A stretch of 64,000 bases of DNA from Verrucomicrobiota bacterium (lineage in GTDB: Bacteria > Verrucomicrobiota > Verrucomicrobiia > Limisphaerales > Palsa-1400): the NCBI GenBank assembly GCA_049510745.1, contig JBEKYR010000001.1:128001-192000 (forward strand), read 5' to 3'. The notes beneath the pieces are model-generated. The model was not told the DNA's origin, did not search any database, and worked only from the letters and a program-made list of their open reading frames with translations. This document shows positions 1 to 64,000 of the stretch, one piece after another. The translations under genes were made by a program, and so were the position numbers. Every line of letters begins with the position of its first letter. Within the stretch, counting starts at the first letter, position 1.

Positions 1-260
1 CGGCAGATAGACTCTTCGGTTTGACATAAATCTGGTGGGAATTTGCTTTTCGATTCTCCGCCCTTTCACTGAGGCTGCGCGGGCGGGGGAGGGTTGGTTC
101 TGGATCGCGCTCATCTTGAAAATTCTCTTTCCAATCATAATGGTCATCACGATGCAGAAAAGAAGTCAAGAGAAATCTTTTCACAGCCATCCCACAGAAA
201 ATCAAGAAAAGTGCCGGCTTGACCGTTTAAACCTGCCACACGGCAGGTATGAAAAAAAAA

Positions 261-310
261 GTACTCCGTTTCGCTCCGTTTTACTCCGTTTTAGTCCATC
301 TTGCTCCGTT
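261..310. repeat. Five tandem 10-bp repeats (consensus TTACTCCGTT)
   Basis: gtactccgtt tcgctccgtt ttactccgtt ttagtccatc ttgctccgtt read directly; exact 10-bp period. Confidence 0.85.
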
Positions 311-619
311 TTGGCCTCAAGCGAAACCAAAGAGGAGATTGCCGCAAAAGATCACAGAGATCACAAAGAAAAGAATATAAGTTACTGACTATGTGCGCTT
401 TACCTGTTCATTTGTGGCAAAAATCCTCTCAACGCGGCAAACCTTTTCGGGAGAGCCTCGCAAAGCGGCGTCCGCCTGCGCGTGAGGCAGGTTCCTTCCG
501 GCCTGGGGTGCCTGCGCCCGTGGTGAGGCGGCATGGGGCGTGGCCCTGCGGCGAGGGAAAGGACCAAGCCCCGGCAACTCCAGCCTTCGCTCAAGGCGAG
601 CTACGGCTGGCAGGCCAGT

Positions 620-700
620 TTATGTCAAACAGCGAGTCCTCGCCTTGGTTCATAGTCCCATGTTTTCCCATGATTGCAAGCATTTTTTACTGGATAACAG
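620..700 (-). promoter_or_regulatory. Putative extended -10 promoter with downstream boxA-like motif (copy 1 of 3)
   Basis: Minus strand: TTGCAA(679-674)-N16-GACTAT(657-652) with TG extension, then GCTGTTTGACATAA (633-620); same spacing as copies at 15419-15510 and 63672-63765. Confidence 0.55.
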
Positions 701-774: not shown

Positions 775-847
775 GATCATAAGCAATTGTAGCGCAATCG
801 CTTGCACTTAAAGTTGGAGAAAACTACGGTTTGAGCCTGGTGACGAC
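775..847 (+). promoter_or_regulatory. Putative sigma70 promoter TTGCAC-N17-TACGGT (element C, copy 1 of 3)
   Basis: TTGCAC 802-807, TACGGT 825-830; homologous to 60093-60136 (+) and 63376-63446 (-); upstream GATCATAAGCAATTGTAG shared with the 63.4 kb copy. Confidence 0.6.
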
Positions 848-914
848 CTGTGAGATAAACGCAAAGGGCAAAAGACGCCAAGACTTAGCGCGGCAAGCCG
901 CAACCAAAGGAAGG

Positions 915-1075
915 CGACCACGGATCGCACGGATCGCAGAGATGAACAAATTATCGGGAAGACAAGTGAACAAATTGTCGGGCTGACGCTGGCGCGTGGG
1001 CTGGCGCGTGGGGATAAGAAGCGACGGGTTTTCCATCCGTGAAAATCCGCGGAATCCGTGGTAAGAAACTTTCCC
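915..1075. repeat. REP/MITE-like palindromic interspersed repeat (CCACGGAT...ATCCGTGG type)
   Basis: Imperfect inverted ends; inverted copy with internal deletion at about 15645-15750 and partial direct copy at about 15880-15948. Confidence 0.75.
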
Positions 1076-1113
1076 GAAAATGAATGATTCTGAGGCATGG
1101 CACTACCGCAAAA

Positions 1114-1282
1114 AAGCCAGCTTTGCTTTGCGACTTCGCGTCCTACGCCCCTTGCGTTTCGTCTGGTCCGTTCCGGGTGCCGCGGGATCGGGGGAGGTTA
1201 AGGAAACCGGGACAGACCGGCCCAACGCACCGATGCCGCAAACCACCCAGAAAATACAAATTTCCTAGGCCTGACCCTTTTC
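1114..1282 (+). repeat. Conserved ~165-170 bp non-coding element A ending CCTAGGCCTGACCCTTTT
   Basis: Near-identical inverted copy at 63191-63355; diverged partial copy at 63513-63600. Confidence 0.9.
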
Positions 1283-1392
1283 ACTTTCAAGAAACCTGAT
1301 ACGAATAAAGCACCTCAGAGTGGCTGGTTTTGATTCGACCCCAACTGGCTCGTTTTGAAGTGACCGGTGACAGGATTATTATGCAGGTTCGT

Positions 1393-2418
1393 TTATGCGC
1401 GAATCGCATACACAATAATGGAGATGATGAGGATGGCCACCACCGAAAACAACAAAATGGTGGCGACAACGTTGTCAGGGTTATTTTTTGATTTTTTCGC
1501 CAAACTTGGCTGCATCGGCCCGCTGGACGATTTGTCGGTTATAACTGCGCGACGTGTTGTCATATCTACAACAATATGCCCTTCAAGCTGCCATTGCAAT
1601 TTCCCATCTTTATCTTTTGTCATCTGCGGAAACGCGGTGAACGGTTCCGCTTGGTATCCAAATTGGACGGGCTGCAAACGCAAATCCCAAAGTTGCGCAT
1701 TTACCTCCTTTGGCGTCACACCGATAGCAGTACGCTGCCCCGTCATCCAATTCTCATCTACCACAAGATTAGGCACCGTTGCAAAATTACCGGGCAGCAT
1801 ATCTGGGATCGGGCAATCGCACGTTATCCAATCAGGAGAATCACTAAGCCTGTCCTCGAACCAAGGCGGGTTGAATTTGAGCTTGAGACTTTTTAAGACA
1901 GTTACCTTTATAGTCCCTTGTTTAATTTCGTTGGATGAGATGTTTTTTAATACAAATTCTGCTTTGATATTTGTGGTGCCTGGAACTACCGGCACTATCA
2001 CAAATCCCTTTACTTCCTCATCCTCAATCGCCACCCTGTTGAGCCTAGACGAAAAATCAAACCGTGGATCGGTGAGCATAAGCGGAAAGCCTTTGGATTC
2101 GGAGAGAGCAAAGCCTAGTTCTAAACTTGGACGGCTGGGTGAAGGCAGCGCGGATTTGCCCCACTCCAACCAACAAAGAAGCGAGCAGAAAAGTAATGCA
2201 AAGGCAATTATCGAGTCTCCCCACCTTTTTGCTGGTTTAGGCTCAGTGCCGGTGTTAATAAGCTCTGCCTCCAGTGCTTTTCCGCAGCAAAATAGTGCTC
2301 CAAACGCGAAGCATATCGCCAAAGGAATTGCTCTATGAAGATCATACAAAATACCACCGGCAAATCCGAAAGCAGCAAAAACCGAACCACACACAATAAT
2401 ATTTCTTGGATACTTCAT
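1393..2418 (-). CDS. Hypothetical membrane protein (AT-richer cargo gene)
   Basis: 341-aa ORF with ATG start, three N-terminal hydrophobic helices and one C-terminal helix; composition visibly lower in GC than neighbours; no recognised family. Confidence 0.6.
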   Translation of the reverse strand: MKYPRNIIVCGSVFAAFGFAGGILYDLHRAIPLAICFAFGALFCCGKALEAELINTGTEPKPAKRWGDSIIAFALLFCSLLCWLEWGKSALPSPSRPSLELGFALSESKGFPLMLTDPRFDFSSRLNRVAIEDEEVKGFVIVPVVPGTTNIKAEFVLKNISSNEIKQGTIKVTVLKSLKLKFNPPWFEDRLSDSPDWITCDCPIPDMLPGNFATVPNLVVDENWMTGQRTAIGVTPKEVNAQLWDLRLQPVQFGYQAEPFTAFPQMTKDKDGKLQWQLEGHIVVDMTTRRAVITDKSSSGPMQPSLAKKSKNNPDNVVATILLFSVVAILIISIIVYAIRA

Positions 2419-2593
2419 ATCGGGCCTTTTGGTTTCGGCATATTATTTTTCGCTGGGTTCCTGTGTGGATTTATTATTGGGTGCGCCGTTTCTCGTTAGA
2501 ATTTCAACTTTTTTTATAATGGCAACACGTTTTACAGGAAGTAAATTGCACGAGTTAAGGGTGCGTCAGTTAAGTGGAAAGCCCGTAGAAGAA

Positions 2594-2642
2594 AAAAGGG
2601 TCAGAGAAGAAAAAAAAGGGTCAGTCCTAGGATATTGGTATT
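2594..2642. repeat. Doubled AAAAGGGTCAG end motif, inverted relative to 1250-1282
   Basis: AAAAGGGTCAG (2594-2604) and AAAAGGGTCAGTCCTAGGATATTGGTATT (2614-2642); same doubled layout at 63163-63220. Confidence 0.8.
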
Positions 2643-2728
2643 CAATCATTTTGAGAAACCAGCCAGTCCAGCATAATCGCATATTATCGTTTTCTTTCCA
2701 GATCCCGCAGCGGGCCGGGGCGGCTGGC

Positions 2729-2760
2729 TTCCGCCGTCGCTAAAGCTATGGCGGACAGGT
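2729..2760. repeat. REP-like palindrome TCCGCCGTCGCTAAAGCTATGGCGGACAGG
   Basis: Imperfect hairpin; related sequence at about 581-615. Confidence 0.55.
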
Positions 2761-2832
2761 GGTTGCTCCTCGGTTGCAGATTTCTTTCGTGCTTTAAAAG
2801 GTCACCAACTTCAGGCCTATTGCGCTGGCTAA

Positions 2833-2845
2833 CCAGGTAGATCAT
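2833..2845 (-). pseudogene. Probable 4-codon stub (MIYL) of a deleted PIN/VapC toxin
   Basis: ATGA overlap with the antitoxin stop; reads M-I-Y-L like VapC 'MIYLD' starts, then the similarity ends. Confidence 0.4.
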
Positions 2846-3075
2846 CCCTCGCCTCCGCGCGCGTCCGCCACAATCTCGCTCAGGGATTTGCCGGGGGGAT
2901 TTTCGCCCCAAACAGCTTTGGCCCGGCGGACGAAGTCCGGTTGCGACGCGCCAGCGGGCACGAGTTTGGCAATCACCTTGTCGTGGTCAGTCATCTGAAC
3001 TTCTTCCCCAGACGCCACCCATTTCAAGATGTCCGGCCATCGCTCCGGCACTTGCTGAACGGTTGCTGTTTTCAC
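2842..3075 (-). CDS. Phd/YefM-family (prevent-host-death) antitoxin
   Basis: GTG start; KTATVQQV...ILKWVASGEEVQMTDHDKVIAKLVP pattern typical of Phd/VapB antitoxins; 77 aa. Confidence 0.8.
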   Translation of the reverse strand: MKTATVQQVPERWPDILKWVASGEEVQMTDHDKVIAKLVPAGASQPDFVRRAKAVWGENPPGKSLSEIVADARGGEG

Positions 3076-3163
3076 GAGGCCAAGATAGCTCCCCGCCGGT
3101 CGGCGGGCAAGAAAGCATTTCGGAAGCGGCGAAACCCGCATATCCGTTCCTAATCTTAACGCA

Positions 3164-3196
3164 CCGTCTTCCTCTCAGGAAGAGGAAAAAGGCCAA
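3164..3196 (+). repeat. 33-bp hairpin element B
   Basis: CCGTCTTCCTCTCAGGAAGAGGAAAAAGGCCAA; 29/33 identical to the reverse complement of 60148-60180; TCTTCCT-CTC-AGGAAGA stem. Confidence 0.8.
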
Positions 3197-3249
3197 TACC
3201 AATTCTCACAGAAAACCAGCAAATTCAGGATAAAGGCCAAAGAAGAGCA

Positions 3250-4087: not shown

Positions 4088-4160
4088 TTGAAGGATTTTG
4101 GAACATTTTGGAAGTTTTTGCAAGAAATATATTGACGAATTCCATGTTTTTTGCCACATT
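4087..4160. promoter_or_regulatory. Divergent promoter region with four 10-bp-phased TTTG(G/C)AA-like repeats (candidate DeoR operator) and TTGACG-N17-CACATT
   Basis: catttgaagg attttggaac attttggaag tttttgcaag; TTGACG 4132-4137, CACATT 4155-4160. Confidence 0.5.
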
Positions 4161-4171
4161 TACCCAGAAAC

Positions 4172-4867
<696 letters not shown>

Positions 4868-4890
4868 TAACTTAACCACAGGAGAACCTA

Positions 4891-5184
4891 ATGAGTCAAG
4901 AAGCACTGGGCATGGTCGAAACCAAGGGGTACGTGGGCAGCGTCGAAGCCAGCGACGCCATGGTCAAGGCGGCCAATGTCACCCTGGTCAAAACAATACC
5001 CATCGGCGGCGGATTGATCACCGTCTTTGCCACCGGCGACGTCGGCAGCGTCAAAGCGGCCGTCGATGCCGGGGCCAAGGCGGCCGGCAAGGTGGGCGAA
5101 CTGGTCAGTTCCCACGTCCTGGCCCGCCCGCATGAAGACCTGATGAAGGTGTTCATCGGCGAACCGGCCAAAAAGCAATCCTGA
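4891..5184 (+). CDS. BMC-H shell hexamer protein
   Basis: ALGMVETKG...[10 protein letters not shown]...[13 protein letters not shown]...RPH; GGAG RBS. Confidence 0.97.
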
Positions 5185-5204
5185 ACCTTTAACCCACATT
5201 TGAT

Positions 5205-5483
5205 ATGGCACAACAAGCAATCGGCATGATCGAAACAAAGGGCCTCTGCGCGCTGATGGAAGCGACGGACGCCGCGCTCAAGGCGGCCAACGTCCAGTTT
5301 GTCGGCTGGGAAAAAATCGGCAGCGGCTATGTCACCGTCTTTTTCCGCGGGGACGTGGCCGCCGTCAAGGCCGCGACCGACGTGGGAGTGGCGGCGGCGG
5401 CGCAAGTCGGCAGCGTGGTCAGCGTGCAGGTCATTCCCCGTCCGCACGAGGGCCTGGCCGGCCTGGGCAAGTGGCTGCAATAG
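5205..5483 (+). CDS. BMC-H shell hexamer protein
   Basis: AIGMIETKG...KAANV...[10 protein letters not shown]...IPRPH. Confidence 0.97.
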
Positions 5484-5488
5484 GGTGA

Positions 5489-6673
5489 ATGAAGATACTC
5501 GTCGCCAACCTTGGCTCGACGTCGCTGAAATTTCGCCTGTTCGATTTTTCCGGCGGCCAGGAGCGTCTGCTCACGCGTGGCGGCATCGAGCGCGTGACGG
5601 ATTATGCCGGGGCCATCGATTCGTGTCTGGACCAACTGCGGCAGGGGGCGTGGATCGAGCGGGAAAGCGATTTGGCGGCAGTGGGCTTCAAAACGATTAT
5701 GGCGCGCGGGATCAACGGCTGTGTCCGCCTGGAGGATGGCGTGGTGCGGGCCATGGAGGAGTACAACACAGTCGCGCCCGCGCACAATCCGCCCTATATC
5801 ACAGGCATTCGTCTGTTTGCCAAACGCATGCCCGGCGTGCCTTTGGTCGGCCTCTTTGAAACGGCGTTTTACCAGCGGGCGCCGGAGGCGGCGATGCGCT
5901 ATGCTGTGCCCGAAGCCTGGCATCAGGCCGGGGTGCGCCGGTGGGGTTTTCACGGCGCCAGCCATAAATTCATCGCCGAACGCTCGGCGGAATTGCTCGG
6001 GCGCGAAGACGTGGCCCAACGGGCGCGCCTGCTTTACGTGAAGGGCGGCGAAACCCCGGTGCGCTCCCCTGCCCTGCGCGTCATCTCCTGTCATCTGGGC
6101 GGCAGTTCGTCGGTCACCGGCATCCGCAACGGCGTGGCCATCGGCAACAGTATGGGATTCAGCCCGCAATCGGGATTGCCGCAGAACAATCGCGTGGGCG
6201 ACCTGGACGCTTTTGCACTGCCGTATGTGATGCGGGCGACCGACGTGACGCTGGCGGAGGCCGGGCGCCAACTGTGCGAGGAATCGGGCCTCAAGGCCCT
6301 TTCGGGCGGATACAACGACATTCGCGACATCGCGGCGCAGGCCGCCCAAGGCAACGCCCGCGCGCAATTGGCGCTGGATGTTTTTGTGGACAGCGCGCGC
6401 CATTGGATCGGCGCGTATTATCTGCAACTCAACGGCATCGACGCGCTGGTTTTCACCGCCGGCATCGGCGAAAACCGCGCCGAGTTGCGGGCGGCCATCT
6501 GCCGCGATCTGGACCAACTGGGCATCGTCTTGGACGCCGGCCTGAACGAGGGCGCGCGCGCCCAGGAGGCGGTGATCAGCGGGCCGGAATCGCGCGTCAA
6601 AGTCATGATCATTCCCGCCAACGAAGAATTGGTCGTCGCCCGCGAGGTGCGCCGCTTTCTTCAATCTAATTAA
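5489..6673 (+). CDS. ackA: Acetate/propionate-family kinase (BMC acyl-phosphate kinase)
   Basis: NLGSTSLK, APAHNP, GFHGASH, CHLGG, FTAGIGEN and IPANEEL motifs. Confidence 0.92.
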   Translation: MKILVANLGSTSLKFRLFDFSGGQERLLTRGGIERVTDYAGAIDSCLDQLRQGAWIERESDLAAVGFKTIMARGINGCVRLEDGVVRAMEEYNTVAPAHNPPYITGIRLFAKRMPGVPLVGLFETAFYQRAPEAAMRYAVPEAWHQAGVRRWGFHGASHKFIAERSAELLGREDVAQRARLLYVKGGETPVRSPALRVISCHLGGSSSVTGIRNGVAIGNSMGFSPQSGLPQNNRVGDLDAFALPYVMRATDVTLAEAGRQLCEESGLKALSGGYNDIRDIAAQAAQGNARAQLALDVFVDSARHWIGAYYLQLNGIDALVFTAGIGENRAELRAAICRDLDQLGIVLDAGLNEGARAQEAVISGPESRVKVMIIPANEELVVAREVRRFLQSN

Positions 6674-6715
6674 ACCCATCACCCCATTACCGAACCTGAA
6701 AGGAAAGAAAACATT

Positions 6716-7009
6716 ATGGCACATCAAGCAATCGGACTCATTGAAACGCGCGGATTGATCGCCCTGGTCGAGGGCACCGACGCCATGCTCAAGGCGGCCA
6801 ACGTCGAACTGGCCGGCCCGATGCAGCAAGTCGGCAACGCCCTGGTCACGGCCGTGGTCGTGGGCGACGTGGCGGCCGTCAAGGCCGCGACCGACGCCGG
6901 CGCGCAGGCGATCAAGGCGAACAAGGGCGAACTGGTCAGCGTCCATGTCATCGCCCGGCCGCACTCGGAGGTGGAAGCCGTGCTGCCGCACAAACCGCAA
7001 GGGAAATAG
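6716..7009 (+). CDS. BMC-H shell hexamer protein
   Basis: AIGLIETRG...KAANV...[13 protein letters not shown]...IARPH. Confidence 0.97.
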   Translation: MAHQAIGLIETRGLIALVEGTDAMLKAANVELAGPMQQVGNALVTAVVVGDVAAVKAATDAGAQAIKANKGELVSVHVIARPHSEVEAVLPHKPQGK

Positions 7010-7011
7010 TT

Positions 7012-7323
7012 ATGTTCCTGGCGCGAGTCGAAGGCGCGGTCGTGGCGACGAAGAAAGACCCGTCGATGAACGGGCGCACCCTGCTGTTGTTGCGGCCGCA
7101 ACTGGTGGATGAGAAGGACCCGACGCGGTTCCGGGCGGGGGTCAACACGATTGTTGCCGTGGACAGCATCGGGGCGGGCGTGGGCGAGATGGTGCTCTTT
7201 TGCCAGGGCAGCTCGGCGCGGCTGGCCCCCACCCTGAAGGACGCCCCCGTCGATGCAGTCATCATCGGCATCGTCGATGTGGTCGATGTCTTGGGGAAAC
7301 AAGTCTATAGCGCAAAGGCGTAA
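7012..7323 (+). CDS. EutN/CcmL BMC-P vertex protein
   Basis: MFLARVEGAVVATKK...VAVDSIGAGVGE...VDAVIIGIVD. Confidence 0.95.
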   Translation: MFLARVEGAVVATKKDPSMNGRTLLLLRPQLVDEKDPTRFRAGVNTIVAVDSIGAGVGEMVLFCQGSSARLAPTLKDAPVDAVIIGIVDVVDVLGKQVYSAKA

Positions 7324-7330
7324 TTTCATT

Positions 7331-8818
7331 ATGTCCGCCGCACTCAACGAACAACTCATCCGCGAGGTGGTCGAGGAAGTCCTGGGCGGCATCGGTTTGC
7401 CCGGCGCCAGCGCGCCAACGCCGCCCGCTCCCGCGCCCCAACCCGCCTGCAATTGCGACCAGCCGCCCGCCGGCTCCGGCTCCGGCCCGTGCGGGGTTTT
7501 CCAGGAGGCCGGCCAGGCGTGCGAGGCGGCCGCCGCGGCCTTTGAAAAACTGCGGCAAGGCGGCATCGCCGCGCGGCAGAAGGTCGTCAGCATTGTCAAG
7601 ACGTTGGCTGAGGCCCACGCGACCGAATGGGGCCGGCTGGAGTTGGAAGAAACCAAAATCGGCCGGCTCGACCATAAAATCGAAAAGCTGCAAATCCTCA
7701 AAAATGTTCCGGGCGTGGAGTGGCTGCGGCCCTTCGGGTTCAGCGGCGATCACGGCATCACGCTGGAGGAATACACGCCCTTCGGAGTCATCGGCGCGAT
7801 CACTCCCTCGACGCATTCGATCCCCACGATCAGCGGCAACATTATCAGCATGGTGGCGGCGGGCAATGCCGTGGTATTCAACGCGCATCCTTCCGGCGCG
7901 CGCTGCGCCGCGGTAGCCATTCGCGCTTACAACCAGGCCATTCAACGCGAGACCGGGATCGAAAACCTTTGCTGCATCATCGAACAGCCGACGTTGGAAT
8001 CGTTCAAGGCGCTGTGCGCCAACGAACAGGTGCGCTTGCTCTGCGTCACCGGCGGCCCCGGCCTGGTGGAAGCGGCCATGAAGGCCGGCAAACGCGCCAT
8101 TTGCGCCGGCCCCGGCAATCCCCCGGTGCTGGTCGATGACACCGCCTGCATGAAACGGGCCGCCCGCGCCATCGTCCAGGGCGCCGCCTACGACAACAAC
8201 CTGCTCTGCATCGGCGAAAAGGAAGTGTTTGCGCTGGACGGCATCGCCGGCGAACTCATGTCGGAAATGGAGAAACACGGGGCCGTCAGCCTCAATGCCG
8301 CCCAATTGGAGCGGCTGACCACGGCGGCCTTTGTTTTCAAAGAAGGGCGCGGCGGGGGCTGCGCGGAGCCGGTTGTCAATAGAGATTTCATCGGCAAAGA
8401 CCCGTCCGTCCTGGCGCAGGCCGCCGGCGTGAGTCTGCCGGACAAGACGCAACTGCTTTTCGCCGAAACCGACGCCCATCATCCCTTTGTGGTGGAGGAA
8501 CAGATGATGCCGTTCCTTCCCATCGTGCGCGTCAGGAGCGTGGAGGAGGGCATCGCGGCGGCCAAGGCGGCCGAGCACAATTACAAACACACCTCGATCA
8601 TTCATTCCCACGACGTCGAGCACATGACCGCCATGGCGCGCGCCCTGGACACGACCTTGTTCATCAAGAACGGGCCGTGCCTGGCCGGATTGGGGGCGGG
8701 CGGGGAAGGATACCTGAGCTTTTCCATTGCCACGCCGACGGGCGAAGGAGTGACCAACCCGAGGACCTTCACGCGCGTGCGCCGCTGCGTGATGGTCGAT
8801 AACCTGAGGATTTACTGA
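7331..8818 (+). CDS. CoA-acylating aldehyde dehydrogenase (EutE/PduP family) with N-terminal encapsulation peptide
   Basis: PFGVIGAITPSTH, TGGPG, GPGNPP, catalytic LLCIGEKE, TPTGEG; N-terminal LNEQLIREVVEEVL; start at ATG 7331. Confidence 0.95.
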   Translation: MSAALNEQLIREVVEEVLGGIGLPGASAPTPPAPAPQPACNCDQPPAGSGSGPCGVFQEAGQACEAAAAAFEKLRQGGIAARQKVVSIVKTLAEAHATEWGRLELEETKIGRLDHKIEKLQILKNVPGVEWLRPFGFSGDHGITLEEYTPFGVIGAITPSTHSIPTISGNIISMVAAGNAVVFNAHPSGARCAAVAIRAYNQAIQRETGIENLCCIIEQPTLESFKALCANEQVRLLCVTGGPGLVEAAMKAGKRAICAGPGNPPVLVDDTACMKRAARAIVQGAAYDNNLLCIGEKEVFALDGIAGELMSEMEKHGAVSLNAAQLERLTTAAFVFKEGRGGGCAEPVVNRDFIGKDPSVLAQAAGVSLPDKTQLLFAETDAHHPFVVEEQMMPFLPIVRVRSVEEGIAAAKAAEHNYKHTSIIHSHDVEHMTAMARALDTTLFIKNGPCLAGLGAGGEGYLSFSIATPTGEGVTNPRTFTRVRRCVMVDNLRIY

Positions 8819-8820
8819 CC

Positions 8821-9099
8821 ATGCTACTCGCGCGCGTTGAAGGCAATGTGGTGGCGACCCGGAAACATCCGAGTTTGGAGGGCTGGCGCCTGGTACTCTG
8901 CCAGCCGGTCAACTCCGCCGGCCAACCGGAAGGTTCGCCCCAAGTGGCCATCGACGCCCACGGGGCCGGCCTGCACCAACAGGTGATCATCTCCTCCGAC
9001 GGCGCCGCCGCCCGCGCCGCCGTCGGCGACCCGAAAAGCCCGGCCCGCTGGATGGTCATCGGCATCGTGGATGAAAAGGAAGGCGGGGCGCCGCCATGA
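8821..9099 (+). CDS. EutN/CcmL BMC-P vertex protein
   Basis: MLLARVEGNVVATRKH...AIDAHGAG...IGIVD. Confidence 0.93.
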   Translation: MLLARVEGNVVATRKHPSLEGWRLVLCQPVNSAGQPEGSPQVAIDAHGAGLHQQVIISSDGAAARAAVGDPKSPARWMVIGIVDEKEGGAPP

Positions 9100-9395
9100 G
9101 AATTGGAACCGTCATCGGCAGAGTCACTCTGAGCAAAACGGTGGAGCCGTTGCGCGGCGCCCGCTGGCTGATCGTCAGCCCGTTTACGCGCGAACAATTT
9201 CAACACGCGGCCCACCGGCCGGCCGTGAGCCAGGAACCGAGCCTGGTGGTGTACGATGATTTGGGCGGCGGCGTGGGTCAAACCATCGGATTCATCGAAG
9301 GCCGCGAAGCCGCCATGCCGTTCTGTCAACCCACGCCCATCGACGCCATCGACGCGGCGCTGGTGGACGAGATATTTTACTCGCCATTTAAATGA
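9096..9395 (+). CDS. EutN/CcmL BMC-P vertex protein
   Basis: MRIGTVIGRVTLS...YDDLGGGVGQ...EGREAAMPF...PIDA. Confidence 0.9.
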   Translation: MRIGTVIGRVTLSKTVEPLRGARWLIVSPFTREQFQHAAHRPAVSQEPSLVVYDDLGGGVGQTIGFIEGREAAMPFCQPTPIDAIDAALVDEIFYSPFK

Positions 9396-10441
9396 GAGCC
9401 ATCATCAGCGCCAGGGAAGTCGAAGAGTTGCTGCGCAAGGGCGGCGACATCAAATCCATTCCGTCCGACGCGATCGTGACGCCGGCGGCGCGCGATTTGT
9501 TGCGCGAATTTGAGAACAGCGGTGCGCGCCCCTGGTCGTCCGGGTTGGAGAAGACCTCCGCCAAAGCGGCCCAGCCCGTCACCCCGGCCAGTTCGCCCGC
9601 CGAGTTGGAAGCTTTCTTCAATTCGCCGGAAATTCACGCCCTGAAACTCCAAATCTGCGAGGTGGGCCGCCGCCTCTGGACGCGCGCCTACGTCGATGGC
9701 AACGGCGGCAACATCGCCATTCGCGTGGGCCAGGGGCTGGCGCTCTGCACGCCGACGCTGGTATCCAAGGGTTTCATGAAGCCGGAAGATTTATGCCTGG
9801 TGGATTTGGATGGGAACCAGTTGGCCGGCGGGAAAAAGCGCACGAGCGAAATCCTGATGCACCTGCAAATCATGAAACGCCAGACGCGCGCTGTGGCGAC
9901 CGTCCACTGCCATCCGCCCCATGCGACCGCCTTTGCCGTGGCCGGGGTCGAGCCGCCGACATGCATGATACCGGAAATCGAGGTCTTCATTGGCAAGGTG
10001 CCCATCGCCCCCTACCGCACGCCGGGCACGATGGAAATGGGCAAGCTGGTGTCCGACCTGGCGGACCAGCACAACACCATTCTGATGGCCAATCATGGGG
10101 TGGTTTCCTGGAGCCACATCAACGTCGAGGACGCCTATTTCAAGATGGAGATCATCGAAGCCTATTGCCGCACGGTGGTGGTGGCCGCGCAATTGGGCAC
10201 GCCGCTCAAGACCTTTTCGCAGACGCATTTGCAGGACCTGCTCAAGATCAAGCAAACCCTCGGCATCCCCGATCCGCGCATCGGGCTGAAGGAATGCGAA
10301 CTTTGCAACAACGACGAATGGCGCCCGGGAGTGGCCTGCGCCGTTCCGCCCCAACCGTCCGGCGCGCCCGGACCGGATGAGCAGGCCGAGGCCCTGGTCC
10401 GGGCCATCACCGATCAAATCATGTCAAGACTCAAAACCTGA
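9392..10441 (+). CDS. Class II aldolase/adducin family (fuculose/rhamnulose-1-P aldolase-like) with C-terminal encapsulation peptide
   Basis: GNGGNI, TSEILMH, HCHPP, MANHG; C-terminal EALVRAITDQIMSRL. Confidence 0.93.
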   Translation: MRAIISAREVEELLRKGGDIKSIPSDAIVTPAARDLLREFENSGARPWSSGLEKTSAKAAQPVTPASSPAELEAFFNSPEIHALKLQICEVGRRLWTRAYVDGNGGNIAIRVGQGLALCTPTLVSKGFMKPEDLCLVDLDGNQLAGGKKRTSEILMHLQIMKRQTRAVATVHCHPPHATAFAVAGVEPPTCMIPEIEVFIGKVPIAPYRTPGTMEMGKLVSDLADQHNTILMANHGVVSWSHINVEDAYFKMEIIEAYCRTVVVAAQLGTPLKTFSQTHLQDLLKIKQTLGIPDPRIGLKECELCNNDEWRPGVACAVPPQPSGAPGPDEQAEALVRAITDQIMSRLKT

Positions 10442-11370
10442 TGAAAGTGACCATTATCGGCGGCGGCGGACGGGTCGGCTCCTGCGCGGCGTATGCGTTG
10501 CAATGCGGCGGGCTGGTTTCCGAGATTCAAATCCTCGACGCCAATCGCGACCTGGCCGAGGGGGAGGCGCTGGACCTGATGCACGGCAGCGCGCTGGCCG
10601 GCGATCAGCGGATTTACGCCGGCGATTACGCCCGCGCCGCCGACAGCGAGATGTTCCTCATCACCGCCGGCCTGCGGCGCAAGCCCGACGAATCGCGCCT
10701 GGATTTGATCGGGCGCAACGTGGCCTTGTTCGTCTCGATCATCGACGCGATCAAAACCGCCGGCCCGCGCAAAGACGCCCACATTTTCGTCGTCTCCAAT
10801 CCGGTCGATATTCTGACGCAACTGGCCTTGCGCCGCAGCGGAATGCCGTGGCGCCAGGTCTATGGCCTGGGCACCATGCTGGACACGGCGCGCTTCAGCT
10901 CGCTCATCGCGGCGGAACTCAACCTGGCGCCGACGCAGGTGAAGGCGCTGATCCTGGGCGAGCACGGGGATTCGATGGCGCCGATCTGGTCCGGCGCGGT
11001 CGTCAACGGCCTGCCGCTGGCCGGGTTGCCCGAATGCGGGCCGGCCTTCCAAAACGCGGTGTTCGAACGCACCAAAGGCAGCGGCGCCGAGGTCATCAAA
11101 CGCAAAGGCGGCGCGGGCTGGGCCGTCGGCCTCGCCATCCGGGAGGTGGTCCACGCGGTGCTGTTGAACAAAAAAACAATTTTGCCGGTTTCCTCCCTCA
11201 TTCAAGGCGCCTACGACATCCGGGATGTTTGCCTGAGCGTGCCTTCGGTCGTCGGACGCCAGGGGATCGAAGCGCACGTCAACATCAAATTGTGGCCGAA
11301 GGAATTGATGGCCCTGCAAGCGTCGGCCAAGGCGCTCAAAGACACGCTGGCAAAAGTCCGCCTGGAGTGA
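10441..11370 (+). CDS. Lactate/malate dehydrogenase family protein (BMC-associated)
   Basis: IIGGGGRVG, TAGLRRKPDESR, VSNPVD, GTMLDTAR, LGEHGDS. Confidence 0.93.
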   Translation: MKVTIIGGGGRVGSCAAYALQCGGLVSEIQILDANRDLAEGEALDLMHGSALAGDQRIYAGDYARAADSEMFLITAGLRRKPDESRLDLIGRNVALFVSIIDAIKTAGPRKDAHIFVVSNPVDILTQLALRRSGMPWRQVYGLGTMLDTARFSSLIAAELNLAPTQVKALILGEHGDSMAPIWSGAVVNGLPLAGLPECGPAFQNAVFERTKGSGAEVIKRKGGAGWAVGLAIREVVHAVLLNKKTILPVSSLIQGAYDIRDVCLSVPSVVGRQGIEAHVNIKLWPKELMALQASAKALKDTLAKVRLE

Positions 11371-11410
11371 CGGCCATGAAATCGCCGGACGCGATTAAAT
11401 TCTGGCGCCG

Positions 11411-15124: not shown

Positions 15125-15266
15125 GCGGCCGGCCTTGGGCAAGCCTGCTGATTTGGCGCCAAATGATTGCGCAACACGTTCAGAATCAGACCAAAGATGG
15201 GTTCGCCGTCGGGATCGGTTGCTGACGCCCGCACCTTCAGACACCCCCCTCCCCCCCCTGTTGTGG

Positions 15267-15306
15267 GGTTTGATTTAGTCTGATTTAGTCTGATTTGGTT
15301 TGATTT
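15267..15306. repeat. Four tandem 10-bp repeats (minus strand AAATCAGACT/AAATCAAACC)
   Basis: ggtttgattt agtctgattt agtctgattt ggtttgattt. Confidence 0.85.
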
Positions 15307-15418
15307 TCCTTGACGGAAACCTGCTGGAGGGGGCCGGACCGGCAAAATCTGCCGGTTAAGGCCGCCTGGAGTCTGGTCCCGCGGCGGACGGGCAGGAGAA
15401 CTCCCCGGCGACGCCGCG

Positions 15419-15510
15419 TTATGTCAAACAGCGCGTGTCCGCACGGCTGGAAAAATGACACAGTTTTGTGAAGTTTCAAGTATTTTGTTGCTTTTTTGGA
15501 TTTTTTTGCA
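15419..15510 (-). promoter_or_regulatory. Putative UP element + extended -10 promoter + boxA-like motif (copy 2 of 3)
   Basis: Minus strand: A-tracts, TTGAAA(15479-15474)-N16-CATTTT with TG extension, GCTGTTTGACATAA (15432-15419); clearly homologous to 63672-63765. Confidence 0.6.
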
Positions 15511-59283: not shown

Positions 59284-59350
59284 CGCGCCCAAGGTGGACT
59301 ATTCCACCCCAAAGTTCAACCCGTCTTCGGCGCAGAGTTTCCGACTCCCA

Positions 59351-59611
59351 TTACGCGGCGACAACTTGCACGCGGGGGGCAAAACCAAGCCTGCCGAGAA
59401 GCTCCTCACAATCTTCCCAGGCGAGCCCAAACGCGCGAACATCCGCAACTCCAAGCCGGGCAATCACGTGGGAAAGCGTCTCGGCGTCGCGCTCGGCCAA
59501 CTCGCCGTCCATTAAGGCGCGCTCCGCCCAATCCACCAACTGATCCAGCGTGATCTCGTGATGAAGGTACGCGGCAATCTGTTCGGCAACGATTTGTTTC
59601 GTGATCGTCAC
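59351..59611 (-). CDS. Small helical hypothetical protein (putative antitoxin-like)
   Basis: 86 aa, GTG start, YLHHEITLDQLVDWAE; follows a truncated upstream ORF. Confidence 0.7.
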   Translation of the reverse strand: MTITKQIVAEQIAAYLHHEITLDQLVDWAERALMDGELAERDAETLSHVIARLGVADVRAFGLAWEDCEELLGRLGFAPRVQVVAA

Positions 59612-59620
59612 GGCATCATC

Positions 59621-59725
59621 CTACACTTTCTGGTGGCCTTTATCCACCGGGAATTTTTCGTGCGTCTCGACCAACCGCCCCGCGTCATCATAAATCTCCT
59701 GCCAGAAGCGCAGCGTGGTTTCCTT
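59621..59725 (-). pseudogene. 3' remnant of an upstream partner gene
   Basis: My translation KETTLRFWQEIYDDAGRLVETHEKFPVDKGHQKV* is protein-like and stops 10 bp before the next gene; 5' part missing. Confidence 0.55.
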
Positions 59726-59830
59726 CCGGAGTTTGGCGGCCGGGTGTTGCGTGTGGTGGTAAACAAGACGGTTGTTCCCGAACGGGTCGTGACTGTATAT
59801 TTCGACCGCACAATGAAAGGCAAACTATGA
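59723..59830 (+). pseudogene. 3' remnant of DUF4258-like toxin
   Basis: LPEFGGRVLRVVVNKTVVPERVVTVYFDRTMKGKL* resembles DUF4258 C-termini; ATGA-coupled to DUF2283; N-terminus absent. Confidence 0.7.
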
Positions 59831-60027
59831 GATTGAAAGTTGACCGTGAAGCCGACGCGCTTTATCTCCGCTTGGACGACTCGCCAATCATCGAGTCCGA
59901 AGAGGTGTCGCCGGGCGTGGTGTTGGACTTCAACGGGCAAAATCAGGTGGTCGGCGTCGAGATGCTCAACCTCTCCAAACGCGCGCCGGGGCTTAATCTC
60001 AAGGAATTCCAGTTCCAAACGGCGTGA
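59827..60027 (+). CDS. DUF2283-family protein (putative antitoxin)
   Basis: DREADALYLRL...SEEVSPGVVLDFN...VVGVE. Confidence 0.92.
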   Translation: MRLKVDREADALYLRLDDSPIIESEEVSPGVVLDFNGQNQVVGVEMLNLSKRAPGLNLKEFQFQTA

Positions 60028-60092
60028 CACGTTCAGCTTCGGCGGCGGAAACCGTCCGGCCAGCTTCAAAGGGTTTTGTGCCGTAAAATCAC

Positions 60093-60136
60093 TTGCACTT
60101 AGAGCCGGACAATACTACGGTTTGACCCGGACGACG
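60093..60136 (+). promoter_or_regulatory. Putative promoter element C, copy 2
   Basis: TTGCAC 60093-60098, N17, TACGGT 60116-60121, TTGACCCGGACGACG. Confidence 0.6.
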
Positions 60137-60147
60137 CCCGCATAATT

Positions 60148-60180
60148 TTAGTCTTTATCCTCTTCCTGAGAGAAAGACGG
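60148..60180 (-). repeat. 33-bp hairpin element B, copy 2
   Basis: Reverse complement 29/33 identical to 3164-3196. Confidence 0.8.
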
Positions 60181-60212: not shown

Positions 60213-62273
60213 TCAATAGACCAGCACCAGGGCCACGGCGCTTTCCGCCTCTCGCTCCACGTCCTCGAATTTCCGGTCTTTGATCGGATTCGGCTCCGGG
60301 AGTTTCGCCGATATTTCCGGCAGGCTTTCCAACAAAACGTTCAACACAGAGCTTTTCACGGCGTAATTGACGCTTTGCGGCAAAGAGCCGGTAGTTTGGA
60401 GTGTGGCCATGTCCGCAAGTTGCGCTGCCACAATGCCCACCACGTTTCCGTACTGGTTCACGAGCGGCCCGCCGGAATTGCCCGGTTGCACCGCCACGCT
60501 GATTTGAAACTCTCGCGGGTCATCCTGCACCCCGGCCAAACTGCTGATCTCGCCTTTGGTCAATTTGGGGGCGAAACCTTGCAATTCGATGTTCGGAAAA
60601 CCGATGGTAAAGACCGATTCGCCCAGCTTCACGCCACGACTCGAAGCGACAGGCAATGCGGGAAATTTGCCGATCACTTTCAGCAAAGCCACGTCGTTTG
60701 CCTTGTCCGCTTTCACGAGCGTTGCTGCGAATGTGCCCGCCGTCGTTCTTACGGCAATCCGGCCCGCATCCTCGACAACATGGTAACAGGTCAGCAGGCA
60801 ACCGTCATCAGTAACGAAAAAGCCGCTGCCGGTGAAGCGAGGCACGCTTCCAACCACAGCCGAATTTTGGCCATCGGCTCGATTTGAAGCAACGCCTTCC
60901 TTGCGAGCAACGAATTCGCGGGAAAGTCGCTGGCCTTCTGCAATCTGCGAAGGCGTCATGGAATCGGATATTCTATCGCGGTGGTGAATGGCGTTGGTCT
61001 GATTCTGTGCGGCAGCGAGGTTATACCACTTGTAAGCCTCGATATAATCCTGTGGTACGCCCTGGCCAACGTCATACATACTTCCAACAAGCAATTGTGC
61101 GTGGGCATTGCCTTGCTCAGCGGCCTTGCGGCACCACTTCACAGCTTCGGCGTCGTCTTGCGGGACGCCCTTCCCATAAATATACGCAAGGCCCAACTTC
61201 GTCTGTGCCGCTGCTTCGCCTTGTTCAGCGGCCTTGCGATACCACTTCACCGCGTCGGCGTCATCTTGCGTCACGCCCCACCCAAGCTCATACATCAGTC
61301 CCAGCTTGCCTTGCGCCTCGGCGAAGCCTTGTTCCGCCGCTTTGCGGAACCACTTCACGGCTTCGGTGTAATCTTGCGCGACACCCTGCCCTTTTTGGAA
61401 ACACACACCAAGGTTAAACTGTGCTGTCGCATTGCCTTGCTCCGCCGCTTTGCCGAACCACTTCACGGCTTCTGCCAAGTTGGTTGCTACACCCTGGCCC
61501 GTGGAATACGCATCGCCCAAAGCCGTCTGTGCCGTCGCGCTACCTGCCTCTGCCTTCGACTTGATTTCCTGAAACGAAATCGAATTGGACGACGGCGGAG
61601 TGGATGTCTGTTGGCCGTTCGTGTCGGTGCCAGCGGCTAGGGCGTGCTTAGGCTCAAGCCGGTCAAAATTCGTTGTGGGCTGGCTTGGCGTGTTCGTGTC
61701 CTGCCCCAGCGCCGGAAAGGAAATTCCTGTCCGGTCTTGTTTGATGCCGTACTTTGCCTTGAGCGACTGCCCAAGAAATCTAGCATCGAACGTGAAAAAA
61801 CCATCGGGCTTGGTCTGAAATCCCCTAATCAAAAGCCCTGTGCGCGGCCTGTAAATATGGTGGGTTATAGGCGGCATGTAGGTGGTACTCGAATTCACGA
61901 CTCCGCTCGAATTTCCAGAATAGCTGGCCCCGTGCGGGTTAAAATAGATGTCACCGGAAGTCGAGCCTGTTCCGCTTGATCTGGTCGTCGAGTACCCCGG
62001 TGTTGTAAAGCTGCTGACGGTCGTCGAATTGTTCTCGTCCACGATGGCGAAGAATGCGAAACCATGTTGGAGGGCAAGCTCAGATGCCCTCAACAGAGCA
62101 AAATCTTGTGCCCGCTCGCTTGAAGTATAACCATTGCCGCGAAACATCACCCTCACGGTGTCAGGCGCGTACCAAGTCTCTGAATACCCGCCCATCAATC
62201 CGTTTGATTTATAGGGCGTTTGGCAGCCTGTGAGGAGCGCAACTGCCATCAAGAGAGTCAGAGGAAGCTTCAT
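60213..62273 (-). CDS. Lipoprotein with SEL1-like repeats and C-terminal trypsin-like serine protease
   Basis: Lipobox LTGC; five A-Q-x-x-L-G...G-x-G-V...A-V-K-W repeats; triad LTCYHVV / NDVALL / PGNSGGP. Confidence 0.92.
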   Translation of the reverse strand: MKLPLTLLMAVALLTGCQTPYKSNGLMGGYSETWYAPDTVRVMFRGNGYTSSERAQDFALLRASELALQHGFAFFAIVDENNSTTVSSFTTPGYSTTRSSGTGSTSGDIYFNPHGASYSGNSSGVVNSSTTYMPPITHHIYRPRTGLLIRGFQTKPDGFFTFDARFLGQSLKAKYGIKQDRTGISFPALGQDTNTPSQPTTNFDRLEPKHALAAGTDTNGQQTSTPPSSNSISFQEIKSKAEAGSATAQTALGDAYSTGQGVATNLAEAVKWFGKAAEQGNATAQFNLGVCFQKGQGVAQDYTEAVKWFRKAAEQGFAEAQGKLGLMYELGWGVTQDDADAVKWYRKAAEQGEAAAQTKLGLAYIYGKGVPQDDAEAVKWCRKAAEQGNAHAQLLVGSMYDVGQGVPQDYIEAYKWYNLAAAQNQTNAIHHRDRISDSMTPSQIAEGQRLSREFVARKEGVASNRADGQNSAVVGSVPRFTGSGFFVTDDGCLLTCYHVVEDAGRIAVRTTAGTFAATLVKADKANDVALLKVIGKFPALPVASSRGVKLGESVFTIGFPNIELQGFAPKLTKGEISSLAGVQDDPREFQISVAVQPGNSGGPLVNQYGNVVGIVAAQLADMATLQTTGSLPQSVNYAVKSSVLNVLLESLPEISAKLPEPNPIKDRKFEDVEREAESAVALVLVY

Positions 62274-62291
62274 ATTTTTAATTTGTTAGTT

Positions 62292-63074
62292 TTAGTCTTC
62301 CGACGGCTCAGACCCGTCTCCCCGAAGTGATTGATATTCCATCTTCGTAAGGTTGACGATTTCTGAAAGCTGCTGTAGGCGGTGTCTATTCTCCATCGCA
62401 ACCATATTTGTGATTTGCAGTTCCATTGCGTTTGCCTGCTCGGCAGATATTTTTTCTGGCCGCTTGCCTTGGCTTACAACAGCAAGCGAGGTTCCACCTC
62501 CGCAATACGCCACGGAACCCTTTGCCTCTTTCACCACGTAAGAGGCAATCAGCGTAGCTTGGTGGGAGGAAATTTGACCAAAAGGAAAGTCCTTGAGCAA
62601 GTAATGCGCGAGATCGCTGCCTATGCCGCTTGTGGAGAACTCGGCTGCGATTGGTTGCGGCCACGCGGTCATCGGTCGGAATTTAAAAAGAAATGCCTTG
62701 CCTGAAAAATAATATCCCAAAGTCAACTCGAAATCGTTTTGCTCTTGATAAAAAAAATCTTCCCAGTTTGTTGGCGACAGGCCGGGATGAAGGCTCGTCA
62801 TGTGGTTTCGGAATTCCAGAACCGCGTCTTTTGCAGCATTAGCAATCGTCCTATCGTCAGTGATTTCCCTTCCGGCGGCCTTTCGCTTAAACGAATCAAC
62901 CGCGATATTCGAGTACGTTGCTGCCCCTGCCTCCCCAACCAGCGCATATCCATTAAGGAATTCAATAATGCTAATTTTCTCTGTGCCGTGCTGCTTGGCG
63001 CTTCCCCGCGTTGTTTCGCTCTCGGCTCCAAAGACAATCGCGTCTTTGCAAATTATTCCAACAATTAAAGTCAC
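62292..63074 (-). CDS. Proteasome beta/HslV-like Ntn-hydrolase
   Basis: GTG at 63074 yields (M)TLIVGIICKDAIVFGAES...EKI, SGIGS, YCGG; alternative ATG at 63113. Confidence 0.75.
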   Translation of the reverse strand: MTLIVGIICKDAIVFGAESETTRGSAKQHGTEKISIIEFLNGYALVGEAGAATYSNIAVDSFKRKAAGREITDDRTIANAAKDAVLEFRNHMTSLHPGLSPTNWEDFFYQEQNDFELTLGYYFSGKAFLFKFRPMTAWPQPIAAEFSTSGIGSDLAHYLLKDFPFGQISSHQATLIASYVVKEAKGSVAYCGGGTSLAVVSQGKRPEKISAEQANAMELQITNMVAMENRHRLQQLSEIVNLTKMEYQSLRGDGSEPSED

Positions 63075-63162
63075 AGACTTTGCCTTTCGCTTAATTTTTC
63101 GGAAACTTCGCATGGTTAAGCCTCCAGACGCAAGTATATTATTGCCCTCGACAGCGGAAAAA

Positions 63163-63355
63163 GAAAAGGGTCAGGTCTGAAAAAGAAAAGGAAAAGGGTC
63201 AGGCCTAGGAAATTGGTATTTTCTGGATGTTTTGCCGGCATCGGTGCGTTGCGCCGGTCTGTCCCGGTTTCCTTAACCTCCCCCGATCCCCCGGCACCCG
63301 GACCAGACGAAACGCAAAGGGCATAGGGCGCGAAGTCGCAAAGCAAAGCTGGCTT
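63163..63355 (-). repeat. Element A copy 2 with doubled AAAAGGGTCAG end
   Basis: 63191-63355 is the near-identical reverse complement of 1114-1282; extra GAAAAGGGTCAGGTCT at 63163-63178. Confidence 0.9.
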
Positions 63356-63375
63356 CCTTGCAGTAGTCCGTCGTC

Positions 63376-63446
63376 CGTCGTCCGGGTCAAACCATACTAT
63401 TGTATGAATTTACGTGCAAGTGTTTGCACTACAATTGCTTATGATC
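63376..63446 (-). promoter_or_regulatory. Putative promoter element C, copy 3
   Basis: Minus strand TTGCAC(63419-63414)-N17-TATGGT(63396-63391)-TTGACCCGGACGACG; reads into element A and the cargo genes. Confidence 0.65.
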
Positions 63447-63671
63447 GTCGTCGTTTCTCCAAAAGTCACCCCGCTTGGAGCTTCTGCAAGCGTCAGGCCC
63501 GTGAACTCGGTGTTTTTGGGTGGGTTCCAAGCGTCGGCCCGTTGCGCCGCCTTGTCCCTGCCTCTTTAACACCCCCGGCTTCCCCAGCACCGAACCGACA
63601 AGCCTTGGTCGCCAGACGTGCCGGGCTGGCCCTTTGACTCGCGTGTCCGTCCATGTCCGTCCATGTTCCTC

Positions 63672-63765
63672 CTAAAAAAACCTGCAAAAAAGTAACAAAA
63701 ATACTTGCTAAATCACCAAACTGTGTCAGATTCGCCAACAGACGAGCACCGGCTCTTTGACATAA
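63672..63765 (+). promoter_or_regulatory. UP element + extended -10 promoter + boxA-like motif (copy 3 of 3)
   Basis: A-tracts, TTGCTA 63705-63710, N16, TG-n-CAGATT 63727-63732, GCTCTTTGACATAA 63752-63765. Confidence 0.6.
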
Positions 63766-63855
63766 AGTGGAGTCGCCGGGCAGCGGTCCTGTTCGCTCGC
63801 CGCAGGACGGGCTCCAGGCCGCCAGCGATGCCGTCATTCACGGCCGCCGCATGGC

Positions 63856-63895
63856 CAATCGTGCTAAATCGTGCCAAATCGTGCCAAATCGTGCC
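63856..63895. repeat. Four tandem 10-bp repeats AAATCGTGCC
   Basis: caatcgtgct aaatcgtgcc aaatcgtgcc aaatcgtgcc. Confidence 0.9.
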
Positions 63896-64000
63896 AAAAA
63901 AAGAAAAATCCCAACCACGATTGATGATCCATCAGATCTCACTTTAGCCTTTAGCCTTCGAGCCTTTCCCCCGTCGCTCCGAGCAGATTCGACCAAATTC

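Follow-up and report, generated by a model that had tools for sequence, protein, structure and literature searches.

Orphan TIRtron ends facing AT-richer genes in a verrucomicrobial genome, and their possible use as joints for foreign DNA

Two repeats, A and C, that stand beside AT-richer genes near both edges of a 64,000-nucleotide stretch of verrucomicrobial DNA (the window; G000:C1:128001-192000) are orphan terminal inverted repeats (TIRs) of TIRtrons, a described class of elements, and we assign them as orphan TIRtron ends rather than as a MITE, a REP, an integron or an autonomous element. These ends face AT-richer genes and are accompanied by stacks of ends, stuttered tips and junction variants. 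The most likely explanation, to which we give an even chance, is that a TIRYT, the Y1 HUH enzyme of the class, is encoded elsewhere, cuts at the orphan ends and joins foreign DNA to their tips, leaving genes that are bracketed tip to tip. What appears to be new is the occurrence of AT-richer, probably foreign genes at the tips of known TIRtron ends; the ends themselves belong to a described class.

The assembly (G000) has 5.6 Mb of DNA at 60% GC and is 94% complete. Metagenome runs that contain the window's repeat come from peat or wetland, and the host of the island is likely to be a peat verrucomicrobium. On one side of the island, 2 kb to the left of the window, lies a gene whose sequence reads as glycosyltransferase-like; a DeoR gene lies on the other. 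In window coordinates, the left instance is made up as follows.

250..700, minus strand: boxA unit with a promoter-like site, a boxA-like motif and 9-nt tandem repeats; a separate, associated family, of which this is one of about 21.
775..837, plus strand: C (left), orphan TIRtron end of the GGGTCAAACC family; TIR at about 818-837, tip at 837 pointing right.
850..1100, no strand: palindromic repeat arms, multi-copy (3-20 copies per 50-nt tile), between C and A.
1102..1281, plus strand: A (left), species-specific repeat in 12 copies; TIR at 1254-1277, GGGTCAG-CCTAGG family, tip at 1277 pointing right.
1287..1372, minus strand: orphan IS21-family left end with its outer end facing the cargo gene; missed in the earlier note.
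1393..2418, minus strand: cargo ORFan of 341 aa with hydrophobic N- and C-terminal stretches, GC 0.46.
2598..2655, minus strand: facing TIRtron right end; TIR at 2618-2641, its tip directed leftward to the cargo, with a stuttered partial tip at 2598.
2794..2845, minus strand: toxin-gene remnant of a toxin-antitoxin pair, internally deleted.
2842..3075, minus strand: orphan antitoxin gene of 77 aa, Phd/VapB-like, outside the tip-to-tip pair.
3164..3196, plus strand: B (left), worn member of a (TAATCT)n-hairpin-(GATTAA)n palindrome family.

The right instance holds these features.

60069..60128, plus strand: another copy of C, the third, whose TIR tip (60128) points rightward into the right-hand cargo.
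60148..60180, minus strand: B (right), inside the tip-to-tip pair.
60213..63113, minus strand: right-hand cargo of two genes.
60213-62273, minus strand: Sel1-repeat trypsin-like protease gene of this cargo.
62292-63113, minus strand: proteasome-subunit-like gene of this cargo.
63168..63367, minus strand: A (right), TIR tip at 63196 and a stuttered second tip.
63376..63626, minus strand: C (right), including the preceding A copy; tip at 63384.

An earlier note on this DNA had described a container in which C, A, cargo and B follow one another; the parts are indeed found there and recur, inverted, at 60-63.5 kb. What the note had taken for a partial inverted A end carried as cargo is the true right boundary of the left cargo: at 2618 stands a right end of the element type to which A belongs, with the bases that follow the 3' part of the element's gene. 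The left cargo span thus lies between facing tips 1277 and 2618, with B outside it, and the right one between facing tips 60128 and 63196, with B inside. Their GC contents are 0.45 and 0.53 versus 0.60 for the genome. A further A copy (63487-63626) precedes the right C, making a stack of three ends that face the same way, and the counterpart of the left palindromic arms spans no more than about 30 nt in the right instance.

The two instances share ancestry, since their A copies (1102-1281 and, inverted, 63185-63367; about 88-90% identity) are mutual nearest neighbours among the 12 (88% versus 79% or less) and the subtype of B present here (88% identity between 3164-3196 and 60148-60180) has exactly two copies in 5.6 Mb, both at these instances. 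The rough chance that both would lie within 3.1 kb behind any A is 1e-5, and the co-occurrence of C, A and B that had been claimed does exceed chance; the C copies of the two instances have their nearest neighbours elsewhere. The fixed unit with B as its right end did not survive: A (12 copies), C (5 copies), the B-type palindromes (about 56 loci) and the boxA units (about 21) are each a dispersed family of their own, and just two of the 12 copies of A and two of the 5 copies of C stand in the order C-A..B. B was rejected as an element end; it belongs to a separate palindrome family whose flanks are at genome GC (0.60, n 110), and its own folding is weak (z -2.1 left, -0.8 right). The claimed association with boxA units holds, with a TIR end within 1 kb on the promoter side of 7 of 21 units, on the other side of none of the 21 and at 1.1% of random positions; the promoter side, where TIR ends are enriched, has the lower GC (0.56).

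The identity of A and C comes from intact elements in related genomes. The last 24 nt of A match both ends of two Y1 transposase elements (L006, L028) and the last 19 nt of C match both ends of a third (L107); the proteins enclosed by L028, L107 and L094 match Pfam Y1_Tnp over its cut-off. The link that the earlier note drew between the GGGTCAG end and HUH Y1 transposase genes is supported by these elements, and so is its view of non-autonomous DNA served in trans. Among 13 aligned intact elements, 12 have TIRs measuring about 21-28 nt and lack any target duplication longer than 4 nt, the remaining row being misplaced; each family keeps a short, family-specific outer linker of 3-8 nt that recurs at tips. 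The tip motif GGGG[AT][CG]A[CG] is complete in intact C-type elements and several other families. In the window, A and the facing tips read AGGGTCAG, with one mismatch to the motif that is usual in the family (84% A at -1), and the left C tip is degenerate. With one TIR each, A and C are not MITEs, which are short and have TIRs at both ends; true two-ended miniatures of 70-130 nt are found elsewhere in G000. Two of the end patterns were found in 14 and 22 of 30 family genomes.

TIRtrons are described in the text of Di Nocera et al. (2013; PMC3733652) as Y1 HUH TIRYT genes lying between TIRs with tips of the GGGG[AT][CG]A[CG] type, together with dispersed single, dimeric and clustered TIR families. 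Our ends agree with that description in the Y1 HUH gene between TIRs and in the dispersed TIR families, with tips that match the motif to a varying extent, and these exact TIR sequences may already stand in Figure 9 or the supplements of that paper. The earlier note had called its platform undescribed and had named a match to a described element as counting against it; A and C fall in a class already described, and so its own counter-case holds in part. The enzymes seen here are probably TnpA-Y1 subclass 2.1 in the text of Quentin et al. (2018; PMC6006769), where TIRYT is the second largest Y1 HUH subclass, found in about 15% of strains, without a known role and with its role left open. They have 315-347 aa and long C-terminal tails, in the place where subclass 2.1 enzymes carry an HTH extension, with no match to Bac_DnaA_C or an HTH family at E 0.05. 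The 64-kb window contains no match to a TIRYT gene, only orphan ends. Elsewhere in G000 there are full-length TIRYT frames on contigs C6, where the TIRs are of a different family, and C10, where no TIR is seen and the identity to the C-type enzyme is 53%, and one frame that runs off contig C8, while A- and C-type TIRYT genes are present as fragments only. Because the 94% complete assembly has no intact TIRYT gene with A-type or C-type TIRs, the model has to suppose that an enzyme acts across families or that the activity lies in the past.

Outside this species, no match to the inner 100 nt of A was obtained. The exact core pattern of A occurs in 8 metagenome stretches, none of them less than 99.9% identical to G000; a profile of the core detected none in 150 other genomes of the order, and relatives have short tip or arm matches only (3 of 40). 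An origin of the interior as a TIRYT gene fragment was discarded (no convincing match among the loci compared), as was A as a structured RNA, with compensatory change in 1 of 29 predicted pairs and nothing from Rfam in the window; no stable fold is predicted for the A tip or for C. Besides its TIR, the left C has about 45 nt of inner flank, also present in another genome (loci L068, L113 and L138). Two hexamers in C, TTGCAC (802-807) and TACGGT (825-830), are 17 nt apart, a spacing kept in 4 of 5 C copies; they receive no score in a sigma-70 scan. They make up a putative outward promoter that may read out through the tip.

We mapped eight TIR families across the genome and obtained 124 raw matches, versus 7 in a shuffled genome, representing 119 tips; the analysis used the 107 whose tip is nearly intact. 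At spacings of 250-6000 nt, neighbouring tips form 23 pairs: 4 tandem, 3 back-to-back and 16 tip-to-tip, the last spaced at 0.3-3.1 kb and including both window cases. Orientation alone is no evidence, because any two intact elements that flank a gene face it tip to tip; polarity, unlike orientation, does count. All 16 tip-to-tip intervals fall in the lowest GC quartile (mean 0.51), and among orphan ends with full flanks GC is lower outside the tip in 42 of 52 (p 1e-6), at 0.535 outside and 0.607, the genome mean, inside. These figures bear out the claim that variable low-GC cargo lies beside the ends, low GC being only a proxy for foreign origin. The bias is also seen at solitary ends alone (22 of 31, p 0.002), and six IS21 ends used as a control have no outward GC bias. 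Fifteen tip-to-tip intervals were scored by eye and are closely filled by reading frames: the main frame begins a median of 117 nt and ends a median of 73 nt from a tip, and in 4 of the 15 it runs into the tip. Stacked ends of different families and stuttered tips are present in the genome, and 60 of 82 end stacks are without a partner.

These features can be accommodated in a model in which a TIRYT would recognise the TIR of 23-28 nt, nick the DNA a few bases outside the GGGTCA tip and rejoin the single strands to another tip or to unrelated DNA, without target duplication. Over repeated rounds, genes and more end fragments would accumulate at the tip and the adjoining DNA would be trimmed; the stacked ends of mixed families and the stuttered tips fit repeated cutting and rejoining of this kind. 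A single copying of an ancestral C-A..B stretch is likely, after which additions at the tip of A would have pushed B, a passive marker, away from it. The sequences establish what the ends are, their polarity and the junction variants; we infer how the joining works chemically, in which direction events ran and which enzyme serves the ends.

The model is weakened by the absence of a container copy, the want of an intact A- or C-type enzyme, the IS21 and toxin-antitoxin debris and the variability of the site, and the rival explanations keep weight because of the missing container copy, this debris and the variation in relatives. Within the left cargo the ORFan had no homologue but itself among 2975 candidates, all of similar length; 2 of 300 genomes gave weak matches to its N-terminal part, and Atlas matches were all under 0.9. 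For one gene of the right cargo, 7 of 30 relatives have homologues, all of them distant (36% or less). The orphan antitoxin is without a Pfam or NCBIfam match and matches VapB46 weakly in the PDB (E 1.3); behind its homologues (82-87% identity) stands a toxin gene, and just 13 + 40 nt or so of that gene are left in the window, so the antitoxin is orphaned as had been proposed. We take the toxin remnant to be PIN-type from its N-terminal motif. The internal deletion of the toxin gene is away from any TIR, and the antitoxin is a separate module. The IS21 left end, identified because its 86 nt also precede an IS21 transposase gene in L166, sits between the tip of A and the ORFan; this end and the separately broken toxin-antitoxin module indicate that the site collects unrelated debris.

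Such debris, with several repeat families at one site, is what a passive hot spot would leave: foreign genes would arrive by other means where insertions are tolerated, for instance between convergent genes, TIRtrons, IS21 elements and palindromes would insert there and decay, and deletions bounded by ends would leave orphan ends behind, with no capture by TIRYT. In 4 of the 13 DeoR loci compared in relatives (from 16 matches) the glycosyltransferase gene lies near DeoR with different intervening genes in each, and the interval has no match to our TIR ends in any of the four; the island shares no DNA with the 13 loci beyond one 48-nt repeat. The interval thus varies without these ends, and the site is a hot spot in any case. 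The lack of a duplicated container (none of the 16 has a second whole copy in the genome) also favours this explanation. However, had the ends inserted into AT-rich islands, GC should be low on either side of them, and the inner side is at genome GC; the polarity is absent from B-family repeats and from IS21 ends (six only), and Rhs cassettes in a relative each begin with the same linker and TIR. On balance we think it rather unlikely that a hot spot alone accounts for the data.

The empty site that had been suggested as a check was not found, nor was a circle. Logan contigs of peat runs (five in all) reproduce pieces of both containers. No joint skipping the left cargo was seen in those of runs X3, X4, X6 and X8, and none skipping the right cargo in those of X3, X4, X6 and X7; since rare variants are lost from contigs, this does not show that such joints are absent. 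In X3 the left cargo contig has a depth of 10.1 versus about 16, a difference that carries no weight since depth is not copy number.

It is improbable that the cargo was moved as composite transposons, in which two TIRtrons or 70-130 nt miniatures would carry a gene by their outer ends, later eroded. An outer partner is kept at 7 of 32 cargo-facing ends, and miniature element-cargo-miniature element arrangements exist at L072 and on contigs C2 and C81 of G000; composite transposons likewise have cargo between facing ends. The outer end is absent, however, from 25 of the 32, including all four in the window, the TIR families (judged by their labels) are mixed in 9 of the 16 pairs, and tandem one-ended arrays outnumber pairs in relatives. 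The reading of C, A and B as three dedicated sites (promoter, recombination site and right end) of one new element served by another enzyme is very improbable and largely refuted: the sister A copies, the only two B-subtype copies in the same order and the kept hexamer spacing in C speak for it, and against it stand the rarity of that order, the TIRtron identity of the A and C tips, the position of B outside one pair and inside the other, the absence of the B subtype from the other 14 tip-to-tip pairs and the failure to find the A core in any of 150 other genomes of the order.

Arrays of ends and genes are found in relatives. Pooled tips number 359 among the matches listed, from 20 genomes with five lone rows left out, and at 250-6000 nt these listed tips form 14 tip-to-tip, 24 tandem and 13 back-to-back pairs; among the matches listed, 11 of the 13 back-to-back pairs are at about 1.1 kb, the size of an intact element. 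In 38 loci chosen mostly for closely spaced tips or an intact element, whole lower-GC genes commonly follow ends, with up to five between two tips (L069), and ends alternate with genes in L075, L077, L079 and L080, as on contig C62 of G000. In G017, modules of an Rhs C-terminal part and its immunity gene each start with one shared linker and TIR, which are fused to Rhs sequence. The end of one immunity gene adjoins this linker and TIR at two different positions, separated by 40 nt; this difference could be an end-bounded deletion instead of a new join. It is possible, though we lean against it, that TIRYT enzymes are gene-capture recombinases in general, that their tips are reusable joining sites for foreign genes and Rhs toxin-immunity modules, assembled in arrays, and that TIR families join one another, in an integron-like manner with an HUH enzyme in place of IntI.

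In integrons, whole genes are added successively behind a fixed end by the tyrosine recombinase IntI. Our arrays resemble them in the proposed successive addition of whole genes behind a fixed end and in a possible outward promoter, and differ in that the candidate enzyme is an HUH enzyme. No IntI reaches the cut-off: the best match to the integron integrase family TIGR02249 in the 94% complete assembly scores 83 bits against a cut-off of 265, which does not bear out the integron-like site of the earlier note. A derivation of the cargo from integron cassettes gained no support, a first motif scan being mostly noise and a second finding nothing at tips; the latter, a rough scan for an attC-like motif, gave 5 matches versus 2 in shuffled sequence, none within 250 nt of a catalogued tip. 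IS91 and ISCR elements have a Y2-type HUH enzyme, one-ended transposition and ori and ter ends that are unlike. They share with the proposed model an HUH enzyme that mobilises DNA next to one end without target duplication; here the candidate enzyme is Y1, the TIRs are symmetric and most ends have lost the element body. REPtrons, or RAYT genes with their REP and BIME repeats, have in common the enzyme superfamily and non-autonomous repeats thought to spread in trans; a GTAG- or CGTC-tagged hairpin is characteristic there, whereas our TIRs are linear, have no such tag and include an A tip that is unfolded.

We found no description of cargo at tips, stacks of mixed families or Rhs arrays in the TIRtron and subclass 2.1 texts, and the words 'cargo', 'passenger', 'capture' and 'genomic island' do not occur in the text of PMC3733652. 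The literature searched, which includes the texts of PMC3733652 and PMC6006769 and covers subscription papers thinly, contains no report of cargo at TIR ends and no TIRYT biochemistry. If the hot-spot explanation holds, the ends are only markers of variable DNA. If they are joints for foreign genes, the TIRYT subclass gains a function, and Verrucomicrobia-type bacteria of soil and peat would gain a route to arrays of genes and Rhs cassettes that dispenses with an integron integrase. A short TIR and one small enzyme would then constitute a simple system for joining single strands, for which the loci described here give matched pairs of enzyme and TIR.

In the genome that holds the window (G000), TIRtrons, elements that carry a Y1 HUH transposase gene between TIRs, were found nested and internally deleted. 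At C6:131171-133000 an intact TIRtron of one family is enclosed by the ends of another, followed by the end of a third family and then by a 90-aa gene between facing tips (the outer extremities of the TIRs). The TIRtron at C62:22335-22491 (L040), part of an end-gene-end-gene array, has an internal deletion that fuses the promoter and first codons of its gene to the last codons. A Y1_Tnp domain lies in frame within a 1228-aa open frame at C16:70700-72300, which, from reading its sequence, we take to be an alanyl-tRNA ligase gene.

Two further features of the window are as follows.
4151-11400: DeoR gene and bacterial microcompartment-type operon, with a PTAC match and repeated shell-like genes
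250-700, 15260-15500 and 63700-63900: boxA unit, with approximately 21 copies in G000

DeoR was detected in 16 of 30 family genomes. The boxA unit consists of a promoter-like site, a motif that we presume to be boxA-like and a conserved stretch of approximately 250 nt, after which come 9-10-nt tandem repeats; these repeats vary from copy to copy. TIR ends lie behind its promoter side in 7 of the 21 copies and behind the opposite side in none (0/21). The unit is possibly a non-coding transcript; an Rfam search of the window returned no match.

Element C, an orphan TIRtron end with a putative outward promoter, contains the palindrome GTGCAA-N4-TTGCAC, which could be an operator. Behind the copy on contig C2 lies a low-GC operon (C2:148100-149240) whose first gene is presumably XRE/ImmA-like. 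Just past the third copy, window 59350-60060 holds small genes and a truncated gene that we take to be antitoxin-like and toxin-like, respectively; a Pfam search of frames from this interval gave no match. The antitoxin gene at window 2842-3075 (-) also occurs at L143 in genome G014, where its toxin was truncated after approximately 40 nt, independently of the window.

Orphan IS21 left ends without a transposase are common, with six copies in G000, one of them at window 1287-1372 (-), and 2-8 copies in four of five relatives. Several (e.g. C5:50245, L156 and L168) come after half sites that we assume to be attC-like.

Arrays of Rhs toxin-immunity cassettes were seen in genome G017 (L086, L088, L089, L096, L097) and at L021, L085, L098, L135 and L137. 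Each orphan Rhs module in these arrays has a TIRtron end at its start, joined to the Rhs sequence at a fixed point, and TIR tips likewise adjoin Rhs fragments in further genomes.
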